Positions 40,345 to 57,144 of a DNA stretch of 59,181 nt are shown here, piece after piece. Numbering within the stretch: position 1 is the first letter of the stretch; every line of letters starts with the position of its first letter. The notes under the pieces are model-generated. The model did not search any database, was not told the origin of the DNA, and worked only from the letters and a program-made list of their open reading frames with translations. A program made the position numbers and the translations under genes. This stretch comes from a virus. Its lineage: Duplodnaviria; Caudoviricetes. The stretch is taken from positions 1 through 59,181 of the IMG/VR virus record IMGVR_UViG_3300027906_000015; one strand, given 5' to 3'.

Positions 40345-40632
40345 ATGAAAATAAAATTATTAAGATTAACATCAGGTGAAGAAATTATAGCTGAAATAGC
40401 TAATACATCTGAAGATAGTTATCTAATCAAAGATGCTATTGTTATGATACCAGCTGGTGAAGGTAGAATAGGTTTTATGCCTTTCTTACCTTATACTGAA
40501 GCTAAAGATGGAATATCAATTAGAAAACAAGATGTTATGTTTATTGTTGATCCAATAGAAGATTTAATAGATCAGTTTAGACAAGCTAGATCTGGAATAC
40601 AAACACCACCAAAAGGAATTATTACAGGATGA
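40345..40632 (+). CDS. Sm-like small protein
   Basis: LLRLTSGEEIIA; resembles 25947..26345. Confidence 0.6.
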   Translation: MKIKLLRLTSGEEIIAEIANTSEDSYLIKDAIVMIPAGEGRIGFMPFLPYTEAKDGISIRKQDVMFIVDPIEDLIDQFRQARSGIQTPPKGIITG

Positions 40633-41036
40633 GTTGGGTAAAAGATATAGAAGATATGCAGGATAAATTCGGCGTTCGTAAATGGGTAGAAGATCCTAAA
40701 AATAAAGAACACCTTAAAACCTTCCTAGATTTTAGAATTGATTTTATAAGAGAAGAACTAGAAGAAACAGAAGCAGCCTTAGTTAATATGGATGGAGAAG
40801 AAATAGTTGATGGACTAATTGATTTATGCGTAGTAGCTATTGGAACACTTTTGGCATTCGGTGTTGATGCCGATAAAGCTTGGGACGAAGTTCATAAAGC
40901 TAATATGTCAAAAGAAATAGGAATTAAGAAAGAAAGACCTAATCCTTTAGGACTTCCAGACTTAGCCAAACCAGAGGGTTGGCAACCTCCTTCACATAAA
41001 GGTAACCATGGGGATCTCACTAACAATATTCGATAG
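40629..41036 (+). CDS. MazG-like (PRA-PH/all-alpha) nucleotide pyrophosphohydrolase
   Basis: EELEE...EIVDGLID...VHKANMSK...KPEGWQPP. Confidence 0.8.
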   Translation: MSWVKDIEDMQDKFGVRKWVEDPKNKEHLKTFLDFRIDFIREELEETEAALVNMDGEEIVDGLIDLCVVAIGTLLAFGVDADKAWDEVHKANMSKEIGIKKERPNPLGLPDLAKPEGWQPPSHKGNHGDLTNNIR

Positions 41037-43017: not shown

Positions 43018-43536
43018 ATGCCAAGAAAGAGTAAAAATAAAACAATTAGAAAGGTAGCTAAAGAAACTAAAGTTTCTGAATCAGCTGTACCACAATCTGA
43101 AGTTACTAAAACAATTAAAATTAGAAAAGAAACTACCCCATATGAGGAACTTCAATTCCTAGGTGAGTGGTTAGCTCAAGAATATTTAAGTGTAGAGCTT
43201 AATTATAATCCTCTAGAAGAACATCATCCAACTAGGAATAATAAATTACAAGCATGTGATGGAAAAGATCCTAATGGAAGATCTGTAGAAATTAGAACTA
43301 TGAAAAGATCTGGAACTAATTTCGTATTATCTAAAGATGATCTTAAAGCATTTAAGGAAGCTGAAAGAAGTGTTATATGTGAATATACCAATGCTAATAC
43401 TATTGGAATGTGGGAAATTACAAATATATCTATTCAAGAAAAGAATAAAGAGCTAAGGCTTCCTGTTAAACAATTACAATTATTACTCTCTTTCGACAAT
43501 CAAGAGTTTGCCGAAAAGATGAGAGCTAAGGGGTAA
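43018..43536 (+). CDS. Hypothetical protein, possibly a degenerate PD-(D/E)xK fold
   Basis: LGE...CDG...VEIRT; strong SD. Confidence 0.5.
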   Translation: MPRKSKNKTIRKVAKETKVSESAVPQSEVTKTIKIRKETTPYEELQFLGEWLAQEYLSVELNYNPLEEHHPTRNNKLQACDGKDPNGRSVEIRTMKRSGTNFVLSKDDLKAFKEAERSVICEYTNANTIGMWEITNISIQEKNKELRLPVKQLQLLLSFDNQEFAEKMRAKG

Positions 43537-43539
43537 AAC

Positions 43540-43965
43540 ATGTACGAGTATATGGCAACAATAACAAAAGTAGTAGATGGGGATACAGCTAAGGTAGATG
43601 TAGATCTAGGATTTGGTATGTCTTATAAGAATCAAACAGTAAGGTTCTTTGGGATTGATACTGAAGAATCTAGAACAAGAGATCTTACAGAAAAATGGTA
43701 TGGTAAACTAGCTGCTCAATTTGTAAAAGATAGATTGATTGTTGGAGAAAAATATAAAATGACAACAGCAATCGATAAAGGAAAGTTCGGAAGAATATTA
43801 GGAACTTTTTATTGTGAAGATGAAAATGGTGAATATAACCTTAATGAAAGAATGGTTGAATTGAATCATGCGGTAGCATACTTCGGTCAATCAAAAGAAG
43901 ATATTCAGGAAGGTCATATGGCTAATAGACAAAGATTAGCACAAAGGGGTTTACAACCAGAGTAA
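43540..43965 (+). CDS. SNase/thermonuclease-like endonuclease
   Basis: VVDGDT, RFFGIDTEE, KFGRILG. Confidence 0.85.
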   Translation: MYEYMATITKVVDGDTAKVDVDLGFGMSYKNQTVRFFGIDTEESRTRDLTEKWYGKLAAQFVKDRLIVGEKYKMTTAIDKGKFGRILGTFYCEDENGEYNLNERMVELNHAVAYFGQSKEDIQEGHMANRQRLAQRGLQPE

Positions 43966-43978
43966 ACTGTGGTATAAT
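43946..43978 (+). promoter_or_regulatory. sigma70-like promoter
   Basis: GGGG-TTTACA-17 nt-TATAAT. Confidence 0.85.
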
Positions 43979-43988
43979 ACACTATATT

Positions 43989-44471
43989 ATGATTGAAAAA
44001 TTTGGAATAACTACAAAAGAAACCTTCGACGACAAAATATTAACCCAAGAAAGTTTACAGTGGATTGAAGAAGAATCCTCTCGAATAGCTTCAGGAGTTA
44101 TAGAAGGTAATGTAAGCCGGAATTCTTTAACTGGCAAATATAGAACGTATGAAGATATTAAATCAGATGCCAAAAATGGATTAGTAGCTGAAGCTTATCT
44201 TATACAAGAATATAACTATACAGATAATCCAAAAAGATTTCATGATATAATTACACCAGAAGGTATAGAAGTTGAAATCAAAACTTATAATGGGCATTCA
44301 ATTGCAACCCGATATAACCAAATTTTAAGACTGGAATCACGTAAAACAAAATACCAACATGTTCTTATGTTTAAAAGAACTGATGGGGTTTATACGTTTG
44401 ATTCTTATTGGAAACATAATAATGATACTAGATTGTATGAGGAAGTGAAATGGGGAAATTCAACACATTAA
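43989..44471 (+). CDS. Putative PD-(D/E)xK nuclease
   Basis: GLVAE...HDII...VEIKT. Confidence 0.5.
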   Translation: MIEKFGITTKETFDDKILTQESLQWIEEESSRIASGVIEGNVSRNSLTGKYRTYEDIKSDAKNGLVAEAYLIQEYNYTDNPKRFHDIITPEGIEVEIKTYNGHSIATRYNQILRLESRKTKYQHVLMFKRTDGVYTFDSYWKHNNDTRLYEEVKWGNSTH

Positions 44472-45391
44472 AAAAGTTTAGCACATCAGATGTGCGAACT
44501 GCAATGATTTATTCAAGAGATGAGATACCTGAAGATTATCATGGTAAAGATGTTATTATAGGTGAATGGTTAGGAGAATTATTCCATACACTTACAGATC
44601 AATACTATACCCAAAGTATGAGATCTCAATACTATTATCCAGATGTAAAACCAGAAGGTGGATTCGATAAACACATTTGTCCAGGTCACTGGCAAGGTTA
44701 TAGATGGGCAGTTCAAAACTTTACTGATTACGGAGATTGGGTTTTAGATCCAACAGTTGGTACAGGAACAGCGGTTGTAGAATCTATTAACCACAACAGA
44801 AATGCTATAGGAATAGAATTAGAATTCTCAGAGATTACAAGAAGAACAATACAAACACAATATGATCGTGCTAATGAAGTTGGAAGTGTAGTTCCTTTAG
44901 GTAAGGGAACAATAATAGAAGGTGATGCTAGGGATCTAGATGATCATGTTGGTGATCAAATGTTTGATATGATTATCAATGGAACACCTTATCCAGTTCT
45001 TGGAGGAGGTCAATCAGATGCACCAGAAAGAGGATATACCTCTGCAGGAAGAGGAGCAACAATTCAATATCAAAAGGATAAAAACGTTGGAGTATTAAAA
45101 GGTCAAGTATACTGGGATACGATCTTAGCAATCTATTCAGCTGCTATAAATAAACTAAAGCCCGGTGGAAAATTTATTACTCTTATCAAAGATCCAACTC
45201 AAAACAAAGAACCATATCTTTTACATAAAATGGTAGCTGATATGCTCATGGAAAATCTTCCAGTAAAACCTTATGGAACATTTGTTCATAGACATTTACC
45301 ACAAACATTGTTTATGAATACATATCCAAAAAGATACCCCGAAGTGAACTTACCCCTATACCAAACTGGAACTGTACTAGAAAAAATATAG
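44450..45391 (+). CDS. SAM-dependent amino-methyltransferase-like protein (N4C/N6A type)
   Basis: VLDPTVGTGT SAM motif, GIEL, GDAR; atypical catalytic motif NGTPY. Confidence 0.75.
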   Translation: MGKFNTLKKFSTSDVRTAMIYSRDEIPEDYHGKDVIIGEWLGELFHTLTDQYYTQSMRSQYYYPDVKPEGGFDKHICPGHWQGYRWAVQNFTDYGDWVLDPTVGTGTAVVESINHNRNAIGIELEFSEITRRTIQTQYDRANEVGSVVPLGKGTIIEGDARDLDDHVGDQMFDMIINGTPYPVLGGGQSDAPERGYTSAGRGATIQYQKDKNVGVLKGQVYWDTILAIYSAAINKLKPGGKFITLIKDPTQNKEPYLLHKMVADMLMENLPVKPYGTFVHRHLPQTLFMNTYPKRYPEVNLPLYQTGTVLEKI

Positions 45392-45422
45392 GGTTTACAA
45401 ATGGTCAATTATGTGGTATAAT
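45391..45422 (+). promoter_or_regulatory. sigma70-like promoter
   Basis: GGG-TTTACA-17 nt-TATAAT. Confidence 0.85.
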
Positions 45423-45441
45423 AGACCTAAAGGAAAATATT

Positions 45442-45789
45442 ATGAAACCATTAAATATATTAAAAAATGCTGCTGACTTAATTGTCAGTAAAGGCAATGA
45501 TTACCAAAATCCTAAATCTAGGATTCGCCAAGCAGATTATTATCCAAACGGTGCTCAAACCATTTTAGATATAATGACCGGTAAAGTTAATCGTATGCAT
45601 TCTGTTTTAGATGCTATGCGAGATGATGAAAACTATGTAGAGAACTTTGAATCACTTCACGATTCAGCAGTAGATCTAATTAACTATGCAGCTTTCTTTG
45701 CTGCTTATCTTGATTATGATATTGATGGACAAGATCCTAGTCGAGATATATTCAACAGGATTAAAGATATTGAAAGCGAAAGATCTTAA
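45442..45789 (+). CDS. Nucleotide-modification-associated (Nmad1/DUF1599/DUF6378-like) protein
   Basis: KGNDY...KVNR...DSAVDLINYAAF pattern. Confidence 0.65.
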   Translation: MKPLNILKNAADLIVSKGNDYQNPKSRIRQADYYPNGAQTILDIMTGKVNRMHSVLDAMRDDENYVENFESLHDSAVDLINYAAFFAAYLDYDIDGQDPSRDIFNRIKDIESERS

Positions 45790-46498
45790 AGAAGGGTTAT
45801 ATCGACTTCGTGAGAAATTACTTAACGAAGGATATATTATTGAAACAGAAAGATGGCAAGGTGGTACTGATCATCCTGCTTTCTTAGAAATACTACATGC
45901 TGATATGGTTTGTCCAATGTCAGATACAGCTGAAGAAGCAAATGATTTATTAGGAGCTGTTCAACCATGGGCAGATGAACACTTCGAAGAAAGAGTTGGT
46001 GGTATACCTTGTAACCCACCGCCAAGTCATGTACACTGGTTAAAAGATACAGATAAATATTTAATGGATGAAGCATTTTCTCATTCTTATCCAGAAAGAA
46101 TGTGGCAAGATACAGAACAAATGGGTGTTAGATTTAATATTGCTAATCTAAATACTGCAGTAGAATTACTTAAAAAAGAACCTACAACAAGACAATGTTA
46201 TATACCAATATGGTTTCCAGAAGATGGTACGGCCGCTCTCGCGGGCGAACGCGTCCCGTGCACGTTCGGGTGGCACTTTATGTTACGAGATAATAAATTA
46301 CATTGCGCGTACCACATGCGCTCGTGCGATGTTATGCGTCATTTACATAATGATTTATATTTTGCTAATAGATTATGTTTATGGTTAATAGAACAAACAG
46401 GATTAGATGCAGTACCTGGTACTATACACTTTAGTGCTAGTTCTTTACATTGCTTCGAAGTAGACAAATATTCTTTAAATCAAATAGTAAACGGATAA
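45770..46498 (+). CDS. Thymidylate-synthase-superfamily enzyme, dCMP-modifying type
   Basis: TRQ, catalytic PCT, RSCDVMRHLHND with Asp at the pyrimidine-specificity position, SLH; probable TTG start at 45770. Confidence 0.8.
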   Translation: MKAKDLKEGLYRLREKLLNEGYIIETERWQGGTDHPAFLEILHADMVCPMSDTAEEANDLLGAVQPWADEHFEERVGGIPCNPPPSHVHWLKDTDKYLMDEAFSHSYPERMWQDTEQMGVRFNIANLNTAVELLKKEPTTRQCYIPIWFPEDGTAALAGERVPCTFGWHFMLRDNKLHCAYHMRSCDVMRHLHNDLYFANRLCLWLIEQTGLDAVPGTIHFSASSLHCFEVDKYSLNQIVNG

Positions 46499-47850
46499 TG
46501 TGCGGATTTATAATACACGAAAAAACAACTAAAGAAAACTCTTTACAAAAAATAGGACAAATGTCCTACAGAGGATTACCTGAATATGTAGGGTATCAAC
46601 ATTGGAAAGGTTATGATATGGCTCATACATCTTTACCAATGGTTGATCCAGATCCTAAGATTTCTATTCAACCTATACAAGATCATCCGTGGGAATCTCC
46701 TTCAATGTTCGTTGGAGAAATATTTAATTGGAGAGAGTTCGGTGATTTTGAAAATGATGCTTATATGTTACATCGGGTATTTAAAGAAAACCTAGCTGAA
46801 AATGGTAGTTTAAATATACCACACGTACATGATATCTGGCATTATTTTGATGGTTTCTGGTCTTTTATTACCTTTATTGAAGATCAACCTATTATATTTA
46901 CAGATTTCTTAGGAATTAAACCTGTTTATTATAGAGCAGATCAATTTGCAGCAGCATCAGAACCAAGGGTATTACTTTCATATGGAGAAGTTACACCAAA
47001 CTATTTACATCTTTCAAATGTAATGAAATGGGGTTATGATCCAACAGGTGGAACACCTTGGAATGAAATCAGGCAATTAAAAGCAGGACATTTTCTTTAT
47101 AAAGGTAAAGAAGTATGTTATTGGGATTGGAATAAAGTTCCTTTAATGAATCTCAGAGATGATTTAAGTCAGGCAGTTAATCTAAGATTAGGTGGATTTA
47201 GAGATGCTAGTATCTTATTAAGTGGTGGATTAGATTCATCTATCATATATGGATTAATAAAAGAACAAGGATTACATATAACCCCAATACATGTAAACAA
47301 TCATGAACATAATTATGCAGCTTTAGTTGCAGGTGATGATAAGTTAGTTGAAGTTAATTTAAATAATGTTGGTGATTATGAAGCAGTAGAAATACATCAA
47401 AGTCCTGTAGATTTAGGATCAGTTAAACCCCAAATAGCTATGGCTAGAGAATTAGATAATTTAAATTTTAGAAATGTTTTAACTGGTGATGGTGCTGATG
47501 AATTATTTGGTGGGTATAGTAGAGCAAAAGATTATGATAGCCAATTAAGTGATGTATTCTTAGAATTACCTTATTATCATTTACCTAAATTAGATAGAAC
47601 TATGATGGAACAAACAGTAGAATTACGTGCACCATTCTTAGCTCCATCAGTTATTTGCCACGCATTAAATACACCATATGCAGAAAGGAATGGTGAAAAG
47701 AAAGTATTAAAGAAAATATTTGCTGATCTAGTACCAGACGAAATTCTTGATAGAGAAAAGCATGCACTCAAAACAGACCAAATAAGGAAGGATCCTATGA
47801 AACAAAGACAAATCAATATGACAATTTGGAGAGATTTAAATGGGTTCTAA
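46498..47850 (+). CDS. Asparagine synthetase B-like glutamine amidotransferase
   Basis: Ntn N-terminus MCG (ATG 46498, TAATG-coupled), SGGLDSS, TGDGADELFGGY, LDR...ELRAPFL. Confidence 0.9.
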   Translation: MCGFIIHEKTTKENSLQKIGQMSYRGLPEYVGYQHWKGYDMAHTSLPMVDPDPKISIQPIQDHPWESPSMFVGEIFNWREFGDFENDAYMLHRVFKENLAENGSLNIPHVHDIWHYFDGFWSFITFIEDQPIIFTDFLGIKPVYYRADQFAAASEPRVLLSYGEVTPNYLHLSNVMKWGYDPTGGTPWNEIRQLKAGHFLYKGKEVCYWDWNKVPLMNLRDDLSQAVNLRLGGFRDASILLSGGLDSSIIYGLIKEQGLHITPIHVNNHEHNYAALVAGDDKLVEVNLNNVGDYEAVEIHQSPVDLGSVKPQIAMARELDNLNFRNVLTGDGADELFGGYSRAKDYDSQLSDVFLELPYYHLPKLDRTMMEQTVELRAPFLAPSVICHALNTPYAERNGEKKVLKKIFADLVPDEILDREKHALKTDQIRKDPMKQRQINMTIWRDLNGF

Positions 47851-48292
47851 TACGAAATACGATCACAGATATTTAGATTTAGCCAAGTTCTTTTCTACAT
47901 GGTCGAAAGACCCGAGCGCGCAGATAGGCGCGGTCGCGATAGGAGATAAAGGTCAAGTATTAGCCCAAGGGTATAATGGATTTCCTAGAAAGGTAGAAGA
48001 AACAGAATTAAGATTAAATGTAAGAGAAACAAAATACAAATATGTAGTTCATGCTGAAATGAATTGCATATACAATGCTTCATATAATGGAGCTAATTTA
48101 GATGGTAGCACGATGTACGTATACGGACTTCCCGTATGTCATGAGTGTGCAAAAGCCATTATTCAAGTTGGTATAAAAAGAGTAGTTATACCATTTGATC
48201 ATTTCACTAAGGTACCTGAGAGATGGATGGAATCTATCAAACTATCTCAAGGTATGTTTAATGAAGCTGGAGTCGAATATGATTCCATTTAG
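47840..48292 (+). CDS. cd: dCMP deaminase
   Basis: SKDP, GYNG, HAE, PVCHEC. Confidence 0.92.
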   Translation: MGSNTKYDHRYLDLAKFFSTWSKDPSAQIGAVAIGDKGQVLAQGYNGFPRKVEETELRLNVRETKYKYVVHAEMNCIYNASYNGANLDGSTMYVYGLPVCHECAKAIIQVGIKRVVIPFDHFTKVPERWMESIKLSQGMFNEAGVEYDSI

Positions 48293-48325
48293 GGGGTTTA
48301 CTTTTGTCCAAAAGTGTGGTATAAT
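48292..48325 (+). promoter_or_regulatory. sigma70-like promoter
   Basis: GGGGG-TTTACT-17 nt-TATAAT. Confidence 0.9.
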
Positions 48326-48361: not shown

Positions 48362-48877
48362 ATGTTAGGTGTAAATGAACAGTTTCCAGAGTTTGCTATG
48401 AATGTAGTTAAACCCTATGGAAACGAAATGACAAGTATAACTGAAGAAGATCTTGAAGGATCTTGGACAGTAATATACTTTTACCCAAAAGATTTTACAT
48501 TCATTTGTCCTACTGAGATAGCTGAATTCGATGGAATTCCAGCTGAAGAAGCCAGAGTTATTGGTATCTCAGGAGATAATGAATTCTGTAAAGTTGCTTG
48601 GAAAGAAACCAATTCAATGATTAGTGATATTAATCATGAGTTAGGTGCAGATTGTGGTTTAAATTTAACAAACGATTGTGGAATTGTAGAGCACGATGAA
48701 GGTGTAGCATTAAGAGCAACATTTATCTTAGATGAAGATAATGTAGTAAAATATGCTCAAGCTAATGCCTTAGATACAGGTAGAAATGCTAATGAAGTTT
48801 TAAGAACTTTAAGAGCACTCAAAGCTGGTGGGCTAACCGGATGTAGTTGGAACCCAGGGGAGGAGTTCGTTGCCTAG
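48362..48877 (+). CDS. ahpC: Peroxiredoxin (AhpC/Prx1 family)
   Basis: [21 protein letters not shown]-terminal Cys in GCSW. Confidence 0.92.
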
Positions 48878-49121
48878 TGTTGATCTAAGACCTCGAAAGA
48901 GGCATCCCCGGGATAAACGTCCAGCTAGACCTATGCCCTTTGATGTTGCATTACGTAAGTTTAAAAAGCAATGTGAAAAAGCTGGAATTGTACAAGAAGT
49001 TCGAAGAAGAGAATACTTTGAAAAACCTTGTCAAAAAAGGATTAGGAAAAAAGCAGAAGGAAGAGCTCGCTGGAAAAAGAAAGAAGCTTCAATGGCATTA
49101 AGACCTGAAAGGAGGTACTGA
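48870..49121 (+). CDS. rpsU: Ribosomal protein bS21
   Basis: [31 protein letters not shown]; TTG start after GGAGGAG. Confidence 0.9.
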
Positions 49122-52061: not shown

Positions 52062-52679
52062 ATGAAACAGTTTCTAGCAACCATCTTATTGATGGCAGGA
52101 TTATCTACTTCAGTTAATGCTGCAGACTTTTCAGGTTCGCTTGGATGGTCTTCAGATTATATCTGGAGAGGTGTATCCCAAAATGCTAATAATCCAGCAC
52201 TTCATATCGACTTAGCGGTTGAACATGAAGGTTGGTATTTAGGTACTTGGGCAAGTCATACTGATTTAGGAATGGACAATTCTTACGAATACGATTTTTA
52301 TGGAGGCTACGATATGAAGCTTACAGATAAATTGTTAGTAGGAGGAGGATTCTTACAATATAATTATAACGGCGGTATTGAAAAAGTTACTGAACTATTC
52401 GTAGGTGGTAGCTATGCAGATATGGTTGAATTATGGTATTATGTTGATCATGAGAATTCTGATCTTTCGTATTTAGATACGAAGGTTAAAGTACCATTTA
52501 TATCCGTTGTTGATTTACACTTAAACTACGGCAAATGGAAAGATGGTGATGATGTTATCGGATTCACACTTTCAAAACAGCTGAATGATAACTTTGGAAT
52601 AAACCTTATGGTTTTGGAAGAAGCTAGACATGGTAAATTCATGGATTCAGCTGCTTTAGGATTTACTTATAATTTCTAA
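52062..52679 (+). CDS. Outer-membrane beta-barrel, TorF/Gcw_chp (TIGR02001)-like porin
   Basis: Signal peptide, SDYIWRGVSQ motif, EYDFYGGY, C-terminal YNF. Confidence 0.8.
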   Translation: MKQFLATILLMAGLSTSVNAADFSGSLGWSSDYIWRGVSQNANNPALHIDLAVEHEGWYLGTWASHTDLGMDNSYEYDFYGGYDMKLTDKLLVGGGFLQYNYNGGIEKVTELFVGGSYADMVELWYYVDHENSDLSYLDTKVKVPFISVVDLHLNYGKWKDGDDVIGFTLSKQLNDNFGINLMVLEEARHGKFMDSAALGFTYNF

Positions 52680-53644: not shown

Positions 53645-54076
53645 ATGGATAGAAAAGCAATAATTGTAGATATTGATGGTACTGTTGCAACTCATTATGA
53701 TGCTGATGGAAATCAAACTAGAGAACATCACGATTATTCTCAGGTTGGAACAGATCTTCCTATACAGCCTATAATTGATCTTGTAAAAATGTATGAAGAT
53801 AAAGGTTATCATATAATCTTTGTTTCAGGTAGAATGGATCATTGCAGACAAGATACTATTCAATGGTTAATAGATCATGATGTTCCTTTTGATGAATTAT
53901 TCATGAGAAGGTTCAAAGATTTTAGAGCTGATGATATTGTTAAAGAAGAGATATATAGAGCATATATTGAAGAACAATATAATGTTGAAATTGTTCTTGA
54001 CGATAGAAACAGAGTTGTTGATATGTGGAGAAGAATTGGATTAAGAGTTCTTCAAGTAGCTGAAGGTGATTTTTAA
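53645..54076 (+). CDS. HAD phosphatase, T4 PseT/PNK 3'-phosphatase-like domain
   Basis: DIDGT, SGR, R.D..VKEE, LDDR...MWR. Confidence 0.85.
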   Translation: MDRKAIIVDIDGTVATHYDADGNQTREHHDYSQVGTDLPIQPIIDLVKMYEDKGYHIIFVSGRMDHCRQDTIQWLIDHDVPFDELFMRRFKDFRADDIVKEEIYRAYIEEQYNVEIVLDDRNRVVDMWRRIGLRVLQVAEGDF

Positions 54077-54496: not shown

Positions 54497-55903
54497 ATGC
54501 GTTTTAGTTCATATATAAAACAACCGCTAGTAGAAGCAGTAAAACTAACTCCGTCTGAGTTAGAAAAGCAAAACTCTAGAACAAAAGAAGATCGAATTGA
54601 CATCCTTACAAGATTAATAAAGGATAAAACTCCTTTAGAACTTGCAAAAGGTGGATCTTTCACGGTTGGAGAAATAGAATCAGCATTAGTTAATTGCGCA
54701 TTATTTAAAAAGAATCCTGACCATTTCGGAAAGGTTGGTTTCCCTCTTATAGCAACAGATGGAACCGAATATAAATCAAATGATCTAGCTAAATCCAAAG
54801 TATTTGGAGGAGGCGTTGGTGGTGCTGGTTCTGGTACCAAAGATACAGAAAGAAATGAATCACATAACGCGTGTATGATGCGCGCGGTAGTTGATGATGG
54901 ATATAATAATGATTTAGATCATTTTAATGATGAGCGTATAGCTCAAGCTTATAAAGATAATGGATCAGCTAATATATCTGCAAATACAGATAAGATATTA
55001 GAAACCCCAGAGAATTGGTGGTTATCATCTTATATTATATCTAAATTCTTAGCAGAAAAAGGATATATTAATAAAGATCAAATTTTTGATCGTGGTGGTC
55101 CTGGTATGACCTTAGTATATGCTCTTAAAAATGAAGCATATAGAAACAATGGATTTAAACCATTAAAAGATGATAAGTGGAATCCAGGAGATGTATGGGC
55201 AATAGAAGATGGATTAGATCTTAAATCAGAATTAGATACTTCCTCAGTAGGTGCATTTAATAGATCAATAATGAATTTATTTGTTGATAGAAAATTAGTT
55301 GCTATATCATTGAAAGGTCCTGAATCAAAATCCCCACCTCCTAATTCAACATATAATCTTAAACAACCACCTGAATCCCCAGTACATAAACTTAAAGAAA
55401 TTAAATTAGAATCCGGACGTGGTGACTTCTGGTCAGCAAAAGGAATGGAAATAGTTTATGATACAGGTTCAATGACCTTTAAAGATAACTCTCCAGGTGG
55501 AACAAACAAAGCTGAAATAAAAGGTAAGAAAGCCCGTGGTGGTGGATTATCTTGGGGTATTATGATAGAATTTATAAAGAGAGAAGCTAGAAGAGCTCCA
55601 CCAGAACACGCAAAAGGAATTAAACCAACCGCTAAAAAAATAGCAAAAGGTAATGCTAGAGCTACTAAATTAATGTTTGGTTTATTTAATCATTTCTACC
55701 CAAGTGTACCTGAAAAGGAATTCAAAGAAGAATTAGCTAAGAAAGATTGGACGTGGATCTCAGCTAAACTTGGTGCTTTATACGTTGCTTATTACTTATC
55801 TAAGAATACTGGAACTAAAGCTAATGCAATGATAACTAATTTCGTTAACTACGCTGGATCTGATTTATTAGATTCTAGTACATATATTAAAGTAGGAAAA
55901 TAA
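54497..55903 (+). CDS. Putative internal head protein with restriction-endonuclease-like motifs
   Basis: CTS-like N-terminus; E...WNPGDVW...ISLK. Confidence 0.5.
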   Translation: MRFSSYIKQPLVEAVKLTPSELEKQNSRTKEDRIDILTRLIKDKTPLELAKGGSFTVGEIESALVNCALFKKNPDHFGKVGFPLIATDGTEYKSNDLAKSKVFGGGVGGAGSGTKDTERNESHNACMMRAVVDDGYNNDLDHFNDERIAQAYKDNGSANISANTDKILETPENWWLSSYIISKFLAEKGYINKDQIFDRGGPGMTLVYALKNEAYRNNGFKPLKDDKWNPGDVWAIEDGLDLKSELDTSSVGAFNRSIMNLFVDRKLVAISLKGPESKSPPPNSTYNLKQPPESPVHKLKEIKLESGRGDFWSAKGMEIVYDTGSMTFKDNSPGGTNKAEIKGKKARGGGLSWGIMIEFIKREARRAPPEHAKGIKPTAKKIAKGNARATKLMFGLFNHFYPSVPEKEFKEELAKKDWTWISAKLGALYVAYYLSKNTGTKANAMITNFVNYAGSDLLDSSTYIKVGK

Positions 55904-57144
55904 TGGAATCATTTAAAACATTTAAACAACCCCTACAAGAAGCAAAGAATACTCATATGACCCATATAGAGGATTTAGTTCTTGATGGAGGAGTCAAGGG
56001 AGCCAGACAAGCGATTTTAGCGCTCAGATCACTAAGAGACATGCTTGCTGGGAACACACCCACTGCTGCTGATATCACAGTTAAATGGGACGGTGCTCCC
56101 GCCGTATTCGCAGGTATAGATCCTAGTGATGGAGAATTCTTCGTTGCTAAGAAAGGTATATTTGCAAAAAATTCCAAGGTATATAAATCGCATGATGATA
56201 TAGATGCTGATACCTCTGGGGATTTAGCTAAAAAACTTAAATTGGCTTATGACCATTTAAAAGACTTGGGCATCGATGGTGTTATCCAAGGCGATTTTAT
56301 GTTCGATAAAAAAGATTTAGGTTCTGAAAAAATAAATGGAGTTAAATATACTACATTTCATCCTAATACTATAATGTATGCAATACCTGTAGGAACGCCT
56401 TTAGAAAAGAAAATAAAGAAAGCAAAGATAGGTATTGTTTGGCATACCAAATATAAAGGATCATCATTTGAAACAATGAATGCGGAATTTGGTGTAGAGA
56501 TTTCTTCTAAGTTAAAAAGTTCTTCTAAAGTTTGGCAAGTAGATGCAACATTACCACAACAAGAAGGTGCGGTATTAGATGCAGATGATACGAAAGCAGT
56601 TACAACAGCATTATCTAATGCAGGTAAAACATTCAAAAAGATTGCTTCATCTACCCTAAAAGAAATAGAAGAAGATTCAGAATTAAACTTATTAATCAAT
56701 ACTTTTAATAATACAAAGGTAAGAGCAGCAGAAAGAATTACTAATCCAAAAAAACATGTTAAAGAATTAATCGATTGGGTTAACCTCAGATACTATAAAC
56801 AAAAAGAAAAATTAAGTTCTGATAAAGGTAAAGCTGGTGTTGATGCAAAAAAAGAAAGAATTATGACATTTTTCTCAACGAAAAACAAAAAAAATCTTGA
56901 AAATGTCTTTAATTTACAGAATTACATCGTGGATGCGAAATTAATTATTATAAATAAACTAAACGGTCTAAGTAATATTGGAACGTTTTTAAAAACTAAG
57001 TCCGGATTTAAAGTAACCAACCCAGAAGGTTTTGTTGCTATAGATCGTATGGAAGGTGGAGCGGTTAAGTTAGTTGATAGATTAGAATTTTCTACAAATA
57101 ACTTTTCTGCCGATATAATAAAAGGCTGGGATAATCCAGGCTAG
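55903..57144 (+). CDS. Ligase-like nucleotidyltransferase (DUF6267-like)
   Basis: KWDG, QGD, EGFV and VKL motifs of the ligase/capping superfamily. Confidence 0.6.
   Translation: MESFKTFKQPLQEAKNTHMTHIEDLVLDGGVKGARQAILALRSLRDMLAGNTPTAADITVKWDGAPAVFAGIDPSDGEFFVAKKGIFAKNSKVYKSHDDIDADTSGDLAKKLKLAYDHLKDLGIDGVIQGDFMFDKKDLGSEKINGVKYTTFHPNTIMYAIPVGTPLEKKIKKAKIGIVWHTKYKGSSFETMNAEFGVEISSKLKSSSKVWQVDATLPQQEGAVLDADDTKAVTTALSNAGKTFKKIASSTLKEIEEDSELNLLINTFNNTKVRAAERITNPKKHVKELIDWVNLRYYKQKEKLSSDKGKAGVDAKKERIMTFFSTKNKKNLENVFNLQNYIVDAKLIIINKLNGLSNIGTFLKTKSGFKVTNPEGFVAIDRMEGGAVKLVDRLEFSTNNFSADIIKGWDNPG

Follow-up and report, generated by a model that had tools for sequence, protein, structure and literature searches.

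A dCMP-type thymidylate-synthase homologue coupled to an AsnB-like amidotransferase: a candidate cytosine modification module in an uncultured T4-like marine phage

The stretch of DNA studied here, an IMG/VR virus record (IMGVR_UViG_3300027906_000015) of 59,181 bp that is estimated to be 33% complete and is called the window below, comes from an uncultured T4-like marine phage. It holds a cluster of four coupled genes encoding an Nmad1-like protein, a homologue of thymidylate synthase (TS), an AsnB-like amidotransferase of the N-terminal-nucleophile (Ntn) type and a deoxycytidine monophosphate (dCMP) deaminase, with a methyltransferase gene just upstream. An earlier note, made from the sequence alone, had described this arrangement, and all of these genes are indeed present, on the + strand. 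We find that residues diagnostic of substrate class point to a TS homologue of the dCMP type, that its AsnB-like partner belongs to a clade found only in viral sequence, and that the two genes are recurrently linked in phages of many lineages. The pairing suggests an undescribed modified cytosine in DNA. In the explanation that accounts best for these observations, and to which we would commit ourselves about halfway, the cluster would be a pre-replicative module working on nucleotides and leading to a C5-modified cytosine that replaces cytosine or supplements it, the product of the TS homologue being tailored by the AsnB-like enzyme.

Active site of the TS homologue

The TS homologue is recognised by PF00303 (34.1 bits against a cut-off of 24.3) and phrog_160 (1e-32), and the catalytic Cys of solved TS has its counterpart in the P-C motif. 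In the alignment of RSCDVMRHLHND of the window protein to RSADVFLGVPFN of a solved bacterial TS, Arg166, Ser167 and Asp169 (E. coli ThyA numbering here and below) are kept, Gly173 is replaced by His and Asn177 by Asp. The last two exchanges had been singled out in the earlier note, and the alignments to solved TS bear them out. Exchange of Asn177 for Asp is described as switching TS from deoxyuridine monophosphate (dUMP) to dCMP (PMC8670742, PMC13326640, PMC5175136), and Ser167 together with Arg126' denotes deoxyribose substrates where Ala and Lys denote ribose (PMC5175136). The R-S-C-D and T-T-R-Q motifs of the window protein provide Ser167 and Arg126' as in the deoxyribose-type enzymes. As judged from these residues, the TS homologue is both dCMP-type and deoxyribose-type.

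Two further positions bear on the reaction. According to PMC13326640, methylating enzymes have a hydrophobic residue at Leu143 and hydroxymethylating ones Asp or Glu, and replacement of Asp169 by Asn marks the flavin-dependent 5-hydroxy-dCMP synthases. Since Asp169 is kept in R-S-C-D, the window protein is by this rule not a 5-hydroxy-dCMP synthase. Three residues before the catalytic Cys it has an Arg, which departs from the methylase and the hydroxymethylase pattern alike; this Arg(-3) falls on the Leu143 position by counting from the Cys, and HMMER places a three-residue insertion there. The combination of Arg(-3), Asp169, His173 and Asp177 is found in 35/35 members of the clade, which are the window TS, 31 TS proteins encoded at AsnB-like loci and those of phages Muddy, Serbin and KimJongPhill. 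By the same count, the acidic residue of the hydroxymethylase type is Arg in all 35/35. The TS of Xp12 and a T4-like gp42-type enzyme differ from this signature. These alignments place the TS homologue in a separate clade of phage enzymes that has an active-site signature of its own.

The protein also stays below the NCBIfam equivalog cut-offs, the best model being TIGR03283 (40.5 bits against 174.55) and the other TS models giving 16-27 bits against cut-offs of 108-405. The closest solved relatives of the family profile are PDB entries 9iqu/9iqc and the CMP hydroxymethylase MilA; chain 1b49 of T4 gp42 is matched with an E-value of 0.11. Invariant residues of the family, which we take to correspond to Glu58, Trp80 and Tyr94 of E. 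coli ThyA, suggest together with Asp169 a folate-dependent one-carbon transfer. Where TS has His207 and Tyr209, the window family reads S-L-H-C-F, so that Tyr209 is replaced by Phe. Speculatively, a substituent of polar or anionic character would be accommodated well by the Arg and His that lie near C5 in the clade.

As a side observation on the solved relatives, 9iqu and 9iqc, both named 'Thymidylate synthase' in the PDB, share an RSQN...D signature with the gp42-type enzyme of Edwardsiella phage PEi26 (gene 42, L089), which is annotated 'dCMP hydroxymethylase' and has R-S-Q-N at the Asp169 place. In PMC13326640, Asp169 to Asn of this R-S-Q-N type is the signature of a 5-hydroxy-dCMP synthase, and Kanagawaviruses are listed.

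The TS homologue is probably not the thymidylate (dTMP) synthase of the phage. A separate dTMP synthase, ThyX, is encoded about 7 kb from the TS gene in 2/2 relatives with complete, terminally repeated genomes (146,556 and 157,283 bp), which belong to a sister sublineage with an AsnB-like protein 56% identical to that of the window; each has a single PF00303 gene, the TS homologue itself. Dihydrofolate reductase (DHFR, PF00186) was found in 0/5 relatives, the two complete genomes included, and stands beside TS and deaminase in Xp12 and AAT-1. The presence of ThyX and the lack of DHFR speak for a function of the TS homologue outside dTMP synthesis and for a reaction that makes no dihydrofolate. 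The proposal of the earlier note that this protein probably acts on dCMP instead of making dTMP is supported by Asp177, Ser167 and Arg126' on the one hand and by the separate ThyX on the other.

The AsnB-like protein and its linkage to the TS gene

The AsnB-like protein matches PF00733 with an E-value of 1.3e-30 and PHROG 16728, a family without assigned function. Its AlphaFold model (pLDDT 83) is most similar by Foldseek to E. coli AsnB (1ct9, TM 0.76), followed by human ASNS, TsnB9, beta-lactam synthetase and carbapenam synthetase; the tRNA thiolase TtuA and argininosuccinate synthase are found lower in the ranking. In a viral fold library, the top matches are viral AsnB-like proteins of 15-22% identity, such as that of Achromobacter phage Motura. 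The Ntn Cys and the PP-loop are intact, as the earlier note had read them: Cys2 and SGGLDS (S242-S247) are invariant in 18/18 close and 29/29 wide-family sequences. Besides this two-domain fold, N-terminal Cys and PP-loop, the likeness to 1ct9 extends in the HMMER alignment to counterparts of AsnB Gly75, Glu76, Asp98 and Lys449, and Glu348 is matched by an invariant Asp.

Identity to E. coli AsnB is only 21%, and the AsnB segment Y-D-C-A-R-A-N-K reads Y-H-L-P-K-L-D-R in the window protein. Of the 553 residues of 1ct9, the alignment covers those up to about 451, leaving about 100 C-terminal residues missing from the 450-residue protein. Equivalog models are not reached either (TIGR01536, 145.3 against 267.1 bits; NF006949, 100.2 against 499). 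A word-indexed protein search returned 4,402 proteins at E <= 0.001, of which the best 120 are 427-464 residues long and 52-90% identical; in a library reduced to clusters of 50% identity, a full HMMER scan returned 12,825 relatives at E <= 0.001 and 185 clusters at E <= 1e-30. The closest ESM Atlas clusters are 89-100% viral. Among 550 relatives from a pattern-based scan of 185,579 prokaryote species, the best 80 are only 23-30% identical, and the phages of GenBank (50,697 records) gave two weak matches only. The clade was found only in viral sequence, from uncultured viruses.

In the window, the stop codon of the TS gene and the start codon of the AsnB-like gene share a TAATG overlap, as the earlier note had reported (ATG at 46498; the protein begins M-C-G-F), and the AsnB-like and deaminase genes overlap by 11 nt. 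The gene neighbourhood was surveyed in IMG/VR by two scans. The first covered 80 loci of 277 stretches with a relative of the query, all from related T4-like phages; the TS gene lies directly upstream and the deaminase gene directly downstream of the AsnB-like gene wherever the contig reaches. The second, made with an alignment of distant family members, gave 73 loci on contigs of about 36 kb to 348 kb. With duplicates removed, the two scans comprise 132 distinct loci, and the counts that follow use those with at least 1.5 kb of flank on both sides.

Where the AsnB-like protein is at least 50% identical to that of the window (45 loci), TS is present in 44, deaminase in 44, the methyltransferase in 25 and the Nmad1-like protein in 34; the only exception is a partial local match (L156) that belongs to the more distant group. 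At 28-50% identity (43 loci), the corresponding numbers are 18, 2, 5 and 1, the deaminase being counted as window-like by tblastn. With a deaminase in 2/43 distant loci, TS and AsnB-like protein form the core and the deaminase is not a core member. On contigs that vary greatly in size, the distant loci show eight or more gene orders, among them TS-AsnB, AsnB-TS, TS-deaminase-AsnB, AsnB-pyrophosphatase-methylase-TS-deaminase, and TS and AsnB separated by three genes. All 31 TS proteins of these loci, like that of the window, have Asp177, Asp169 and Arg at -3. Three loci (L118, L123, L126) have a TS by tblastn, and two (L112, L120) have less than 210 nt of upstream flank. The survey thus shows an AsnB-like gene recurrently linked to an Asp-type TS gene in many lineages and in shuffled order.

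Other members of the modules vary. Other lineages carry pyrophosphatases of the MazG and dUTPase_2 types, DUF6378, trimeric dUTPase and a UDG-superfamily match, as well as weak kinase-type matches (dNK, thymidylate kinase, P-loop NTPase) below the Pfam cut-offs. Their methyltransferases are of the atypical amino type of the window, C5-cytosine methylases, or in one case a fusion of both. In three distant lineages, a C5-cytosine DNA methylase adjoins the AsnB-like gene (PF00145 in L125; GHPECG-type in L116 and L146), which raises the possibility of a more general tie between the AsnB-like enzyme and cytosine-C5 chemistry.

The view that the AsnB-like protein is not an ordinary asparagine synthetase and is tied to the TS homologue therefore gains from its genomic context (virus-only, below cut-off, TS-linked); the chemistry that the earlier note attached to it stays a proposal. 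A complex prediction from the AsnB-like and TS alignments scored 0.00, with the mark at 0.32, and was counted neither for nor against binding.

Proposed pathway and rival explanations

In the proposed pathway, a MazG-like nucleoside-triphosphate (NTP) pyrophosphohydrolase encoded further upstream and the Nmad1-like protein would act on the dCTP/dCMP pool. The TS homologue, whose substrate type is read from its diagnostic residues, would bind dCMP and add at C5 a one-carbon unit from methylene-tetrahydrofolate, its product most likely being 5-hydroxymethyl-dCMP or a close variant. The AsnB-like enzyme would then tailor this product with ATP, by adenylation at the PP-loop, and with a nitrogen donor released at the N-terminal Cys; the resulting nitrogen-bearing C5 substituent is suggested by the genomic linkage. 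After phosphorylation, the modified nucleotide would enter DNA. The dCMP deaminase would supply dUMP to a separate dTMP synthase, which is ThyX in the complete relatives, and would lower the dCMP pool. The neighbouring amino-methyltransferase may, speculatively, act on DNA or on the new group.

The more specific proposition, that a large group of uncultured phages carries an unreported nitrogen-bearing C5 cytosine, for instance an aminomethyl or carboxamide form, made by a new class of TS and a virus-only AsnB-like enzyme, is one we entertain tentatively and with distinctly less confidence. The aminomethyl or carboxamide product, its further methylation and the protection from restriction and CRISPR put forward in the earlier note draw no support from this analysis. 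Amination of cytosine at C2 by the PP-loop domain was considered and rejected by reasoning, as it would change base pairing.

A TS homologue acting first and a tailoring enzyme later is the known pattern in T4, in Xp12, in the carbamoylation of 5-hydroxymethylcytosine (5hmC) and in the formation of arabinosyl-5-hydroxycytosine. T4 gp42 resembles the window enzyme as an Asp177-type TS homologue acting on dCMP before replication, and each has a dCMP deaminase and a dNTP pyrophosphatase as companions in a T4-like replication module. The window TS differs from gp42 in having Arg(-3) and not Asp or Glu, in His173 and in its distant sequence, and its partner is an AsnB-like amidotransferase where that of T4 is a glycosyltransferase yielding glucosyl-5hmC. 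The module of Xp12, whose modified base we take to be 5-methylcytosine, consists of gp60 (an NTP pyrophosphatase), an Asp-type TS, a dCMP deaminase and DHFR, a parts list that matches the window. The window differs in having no DHFR, in the AsnB-like gene placed between TS and deaminase, and in its TS clade (22% identity).

In the MetaGPA study, TS, PRA-PH and dCMP-deaminase domains co-occur on contigs selected for modified cytosine, and a TS was validated together with an ATP-using tailoring enzyme, a 5hmC carbamoyltransferase (PMC8670742). The window is similar to this pathway to 5-carbamoyloxymethylcytosine in combining a dCMP-type TS and a putative ATP-using tailoring enzyme with PRA-PH and dCMP-deaminase proteins, but the candidate tailoring enzyme is an Ntn-amidotransferase with a PP-loop domain, not a carbamoyltransferase. 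The 5-hydroxy-dCMP synthases of RB69, DLP3 and RL38JI are likewise phage Asp177 TS homologues serving cytosine hypermodification at the mononucleotide level; they have Asn for Asp169 and use flavin (PMC13326640), whereas the window clade keeps Asp169 in 35/35.

The TS of Muddy (gp46), Serbin (gp50) and KimJongPhill (gp78) fall into the clade of the window with 37-44% identity and the same signature, and a dCMP/cytidine deaminase adjoins them as in the window. Their module reads thymidylate kinase, dUTPase_2, unknown protein, TS, deaminase and DNA polymerase I, and includes no AsnB-like gene; the proteins encoded upstream of TS (Muddy gp47, Serbin gp51, KimJongPhill gp77) have no counterpart in the window by tblastn (E > 0.2). 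To our knowledge, the products of these TS enzymes are uncharacterised. Their annotation as 'thymidylate synthase' is probably wrong, and these phages may make modified cytosine. A literature search whose scope excluded supplements and Iyer et al. 2013 returned neither a TS-AsnB pairing nor a TS clade with Arg(-3) and His173.

Several observations weigh against the tailoring pathway. Its largest weakness is that the AsnB-like step would be a chemistry new to the AsnB family, with no carboxylate evident: every characterised AsnB-family enzyme known to us activates a carboxylate by adenylation, a group that is missing from a hydroxymethyl or methyl pyrimidine, and we know of no precedent for AsnB-type amination of a hydroxymethyl group. 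The glutamine site, which we take to comprise Arg49, Asn74, Glu76 and Asp98 of AsnB, is moreover altered in part: Arg49 is replaced by Ser or Ala and Asn74, an insertion relative to the family profile, has no counterpart, these two being kept in 0/18 sequences of the window subfamily; the consensus of the wider phage clade has Arg at the Arg49 place. Without Arg49 and Asn74, the enzyme may draw its nitrogen from a donor other than free glutamine, or its domain may operate in another way. The conserved order among close T4-like relatives could reflect common descent. In one AsnB-like clade, 25 loci have no TS within 6 kb, and Muddy, Serbin, KimJongPhill and others have a TS of the same clade and no AsnB-like gene, from which it follows that the TS can be a working unit alone. 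Finally, neither ThyX nor a second ThyA turned up in the window (33% complete) or in the closer relatives (72% and 28% complete), and the TS may play a role in dTMP supply in the window's own sublineage.

The AsnB-like clade without neighbouring TS is nested in a quick tree among TS-linked lineages. Its sole complete genome, a jumbo phage of 348,582 bp (L130/L176), encodes a TS of the clade type about 95 kb from the AsnB-like gene and also a canonical ThyA (273 bits); six conserved proteins without a Pfam match surround its AsnB-like gene. Among 10 neighbours in this clade, Pfam recognised a NUDIX domain and, below threshold, a P-loop, and nothing else.

On a rival view, the TS alone would make the final base, 5-hydroxymethyl- or 5-methylcytosine, and the AsnB-like gene would be an unrelated metabolic gene, serving asparagine or another amide, in a variable island. 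The phages with a TS of the same clade and no AsnB-like gene, the 25-locus clade, the ordinary AsnB fold and catalytic framework, and the other cargo that Phage C48C1 holds in its polymerase-UvsX island are all as this view would have them. It is nonetheless unlikely, in that distant lineages again show the AsnB-like gene linked to an Asp-type TS, in other gene orders, the AsnB-like clade is found only in viral sequence with sub-cut-off scores and a shortened C terminus, and in the window a TAATG couples the start of the AsnB-like gene to the stop of the TS gene.

Improbable, in our assessment, is a modified thymine as the end product, in which dCMP would be modified at C5, possibly tailored, and then deaminated to a dUMP derivative. 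Deaminases of dCMP accept 5-substituted dCMP, and the deaminase gene of the window overlaps the AsnB-like gene and follows it in 44/45 close loci. Amidotransferases, described as uncharacterised, are also co-associated with thymidine hypermodification genes (PMC8989533). A window-like deaminase is found, however, in only 2/43 loci of the 28-50% band, and neither a 5-HMUDK-type kinase nor an amino-acid:DNA transferase was detected among the window open reading frames (ORFs) scanned. Adjacency of TS and deaminase is moreover seen in Xp12, whose base is presumably 5-methylcytosine.

We assign little probability to an AsnB-like pyrimidine aminase that would adenylate a ring carbonyl in the manner of GMP synthetase and interconvert uracil and cytosine nucleotides for pool balance. 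PP-loop enzymes commonly adenylate ring carbonyl oxygens, TtuA and argininosuccinate synthase appear among the weaker fold matches, and the gene lies between those of two pyrimidine-nucleotide enzymes. Its fold and sequence are closest, though, to the carboxylate-activating AsnB, beta-lactam synthetase and TsnB9; with an Asp-type TS, amination at C4 is not needed; and extra cytosine is not an obvious need of an AT-rich phage.

Very little probability remains for a dTMP bypass (dCMP to 5-methyl-dCMP to dTMP) run by TS and deaminase in sublineages without ThyX. Neither the window nor its 72%-complete close relative yielded ThyX or a second ThyA, and Asn-to-Asp mutants of TS methylate dCMP (PMC8670742). 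A methylating TS yields dihydrofolate, yet DHFR occurs in 0/5 relatives; the residue at -3 is Arg and not the hydrophobic one that is linked to methylation (PMC13326640); sister phages have both ThyX and a TS of the clade; and the AsnB-like gene is left unexplained. Least probable of all is a free nucleotide or nucleoside metabolite, such as an antimetabolite or anti-defence compound comparable to those of the nucleoside antibiotic pathways of MilA and BcmA: MilA among the closest solved relatives and the Tyr209 to Phe exchange (PMC5175136) speak for it, but Ser167 and Arg126' are of the deoxyribose type, the genes sit in a T4-like replication module between DNA polymerase and UvsX plus helicase, and the modules of other lineages hold dNTP pyrophosphatases and weak kinase-type matches.

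Setting of the cluster and its significance

The cluster and its surroundings are laid out in Table 1. The earlier note had one promoter (45391) driving the four coupled genes; a consensus match does lie there, but a scan of the region gave no more promoter-like sites than shuffled sequence did (21, the shuffles giving 27.1 +/- 5.7). The three best sites (43950, 45394 and 48297) each occupy a gap just 5' of a gene. With sites at both 43950 and 45394, the methyltransferase would belong to the preceding unit, and the site at 48297 marks the 3' boundary of the cluster. The TS gene most likely starts at TTG 45770, overlapping the upstream gene by 20 nt, since in two relatives the first start codon downstream of a stop yields proteins of 242 and 241 residues; ATG 45686 was considered as a start and is less likely.

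Table 1. Features of the cluster and of its surroundings in the window
Feature	Position	Strand	Basis or remark
Capsule_synth-matching protein, 304 aa	23568-24479	+	PF05159, 7.1e-6; between capsid region and uvsW
MazG-like (PRA-PH) nucleoside-triphosphate pyrophosphohydrolase	40629-41036	+	PF01503, 2.5e-12; outside the region first noted
Staphylococcal-nuclease homologue with two flanking ORFs	43018-43536; 43540-43965; 43989-44471	+	PF00565, 5.6e-11 (nuclease homologue)
Promoter-like site before 160-aa ORF and methyltransferase	43950-43978	+	TTTACA-17-TATAAT with TG, 11/12; consensus match
160-aa protein	43989-44471	+	ORF; overlaps methyltransferase start
Atypical amino-methyltransferase	44450-45391	+	PF01555, residues 85-125 only
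Promoter-like site before four coupled genes	45394-45422	+	TTTACA-17-TATAAT with TG, 11/12; consensus match
Nmad1/DUF1599-like helical protein	45442-45789	+	DUF1599, phrog_1485
dCMP-type TS homologue, 242 aa, TTG start	45770-46498	+	PF00303, phrog_160
AsnB-like Ntn-amidotransferase with PP-loop synthetase domain, 450 aa	46498-47850	+	PF00733
dCMP deaminase, 150 aa	47840-48292	+	PF00383, phrog_174
Promoter-like site of next unit (peroxiredoxin, ribosomal protein S21, UvsX)	48297-48325	+	TTTACT-17-TATAAT with TG, 10/12
AhpC/TSA peroxiredoxin	48362-48877	+	PF00578, 1.6e-22; directly after deaminase, own promoter-like site
Phage ribosomal protein S21	48870-49121	+	PF01165, 1.5e-15; between peroxiredoxin gene and uvsX
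Cargo 3' of helicase	52062-52679; 53645-54076; 55903-57144	+	Gcw_chp (PF09694, 7.9e-13), PNKP-type HAD phosphatase (PF25109, 1.2e-48), DUF6267 (1.7e-100)

Among the companion genes, the deaminase is assigned by its matches (PF00383, 67 bits against 25, 1.5e-18; phrog_174, 7.2e-40), both the H-A-E and the P-C-x-x-C zinc motif being present in the translation. The methyltransferase matches PF01555 with 33.7 bits against 26.7 over 41 residues, its motif I (DPTVGTGTA) standing before a variant motif IV, N-G-T-P-Y in place of (D/N/S)PP(Y/F/W). Homologues lie inside the TS/AsnB module of three loci (L134, L147, L153), and that of L125 has N-N-P-P-Y and is fused to a C5-methylase domain. The 160-aa protein upstream gave no Pfam, PHROG or NCBIfam match; it adjoins the methyltransferase or the module in some relatives.

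The label Nmad1-like, a kind of domain reportedly defined by Iyer et al. in NAR in 2013, holds for the family more than for the single protein: 13/13 family members match DUF1599 (PF07659) at E <= 0.1, the best at 2.6e-6, but the window protein alone stays below the Pfam cut-off (E 0.021, 15.6 against 25 bits) and matches phrog_1485 at 1.6e-11. Its model is helical (mean pLDDT 75), and Foldseek found no PDB match at E <= 0.001 (best E 3.7). The MazG-like dCTP pyrophosphatases DCTPP1, RS21-C6 and YpjD came up as candidate folds with insignificant matches only and were not used. In Xp12 gp60 and AAT-1 gp47, encoded directly upstream of a dCMP-type TS, the N-terminal half is homologous to the MazG-like protein of the window (tblastn, 4.4e-11 and 1.6e-13) and the C-terminal half to the Nmad1-like protein (5.6e-9 and 4e-6). 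A fusion of this type links both proteins to the TS step, probably through the dCTP/dCMP pool, and the MazG-like protein is a probable accessory that supplies dCMP or removes dCTP.

The window is AT-rich (GC 0.30-0.41). Its T4-like gene set includes the Gp23 capsid protein, UvsW, the gp45 clamp, the gp44/62 clamp loader and RegA, beside a family-B DNA polymerase, UvsX and a DnaB-type helicase; a nuclease/ATPase pair with Metallophos and SMC/AAA domains (Pfam) is presumably of the kind that T4 encodes as gp46/47. By UvsX, the closest GenBank phage is Phage C48C1 (Kyanoviridae; 70.7% identity), in which none of the cluster genes lies between polymerase and UvsX. Other cargo occupies the same place there, which makes the island of the replication module that holds the cluster a variable one. 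No near-identical DNA to 44450-48292 was found by megablast among the 50,697 phage records.

Several neighbours deserve mention in their own right. The ribosomal protein S21 gene is kept in most close relatives, and the peroxiredoxin, present in some relatives only, is probably outside the module. By eye, the two ORFs flanking the staphylococcal-nuclease homologue show E-x-K-type stretches (VEIR, EVEIK) and are possible PD-(D/E)xK nucleases; together with it, they might feed the nucleotide pool from host DNA. The Capsule_synth-matching protein is unusual cargo for its place.

Phage base hypermodifications defeat restriction enzymes and CRISPR and have been a source of biotechnology tools. In all pyrimidine hypermodification pathways known to us, a TS homologue acts first and tailoring follows. 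To this scheme, the cluster adds an AsnB-type amidotransferase as a candidate class of tailoring enzyme that is undescribed in the literature searched, and it defines a TS clade with its own active-site signature that reaches into cultured phages, namely Muddy and phages of Gordonia, Streptomyces and Serratia, where it is annotated as plain thymidylate synthase. Given the size of the AsnB-like clade, with its 185 clusters and hundreds of IMG/VR contigs, the chemistry could be common in the ocean virome. If the proposed pathway is true, the dCMP-specific TS with Arg(-3), His173 and Asp177 would represent a new functional class, and the AsnB-like enzymes would perform a chemistry new to their family, in phages that include abundant marine T4-like ones.

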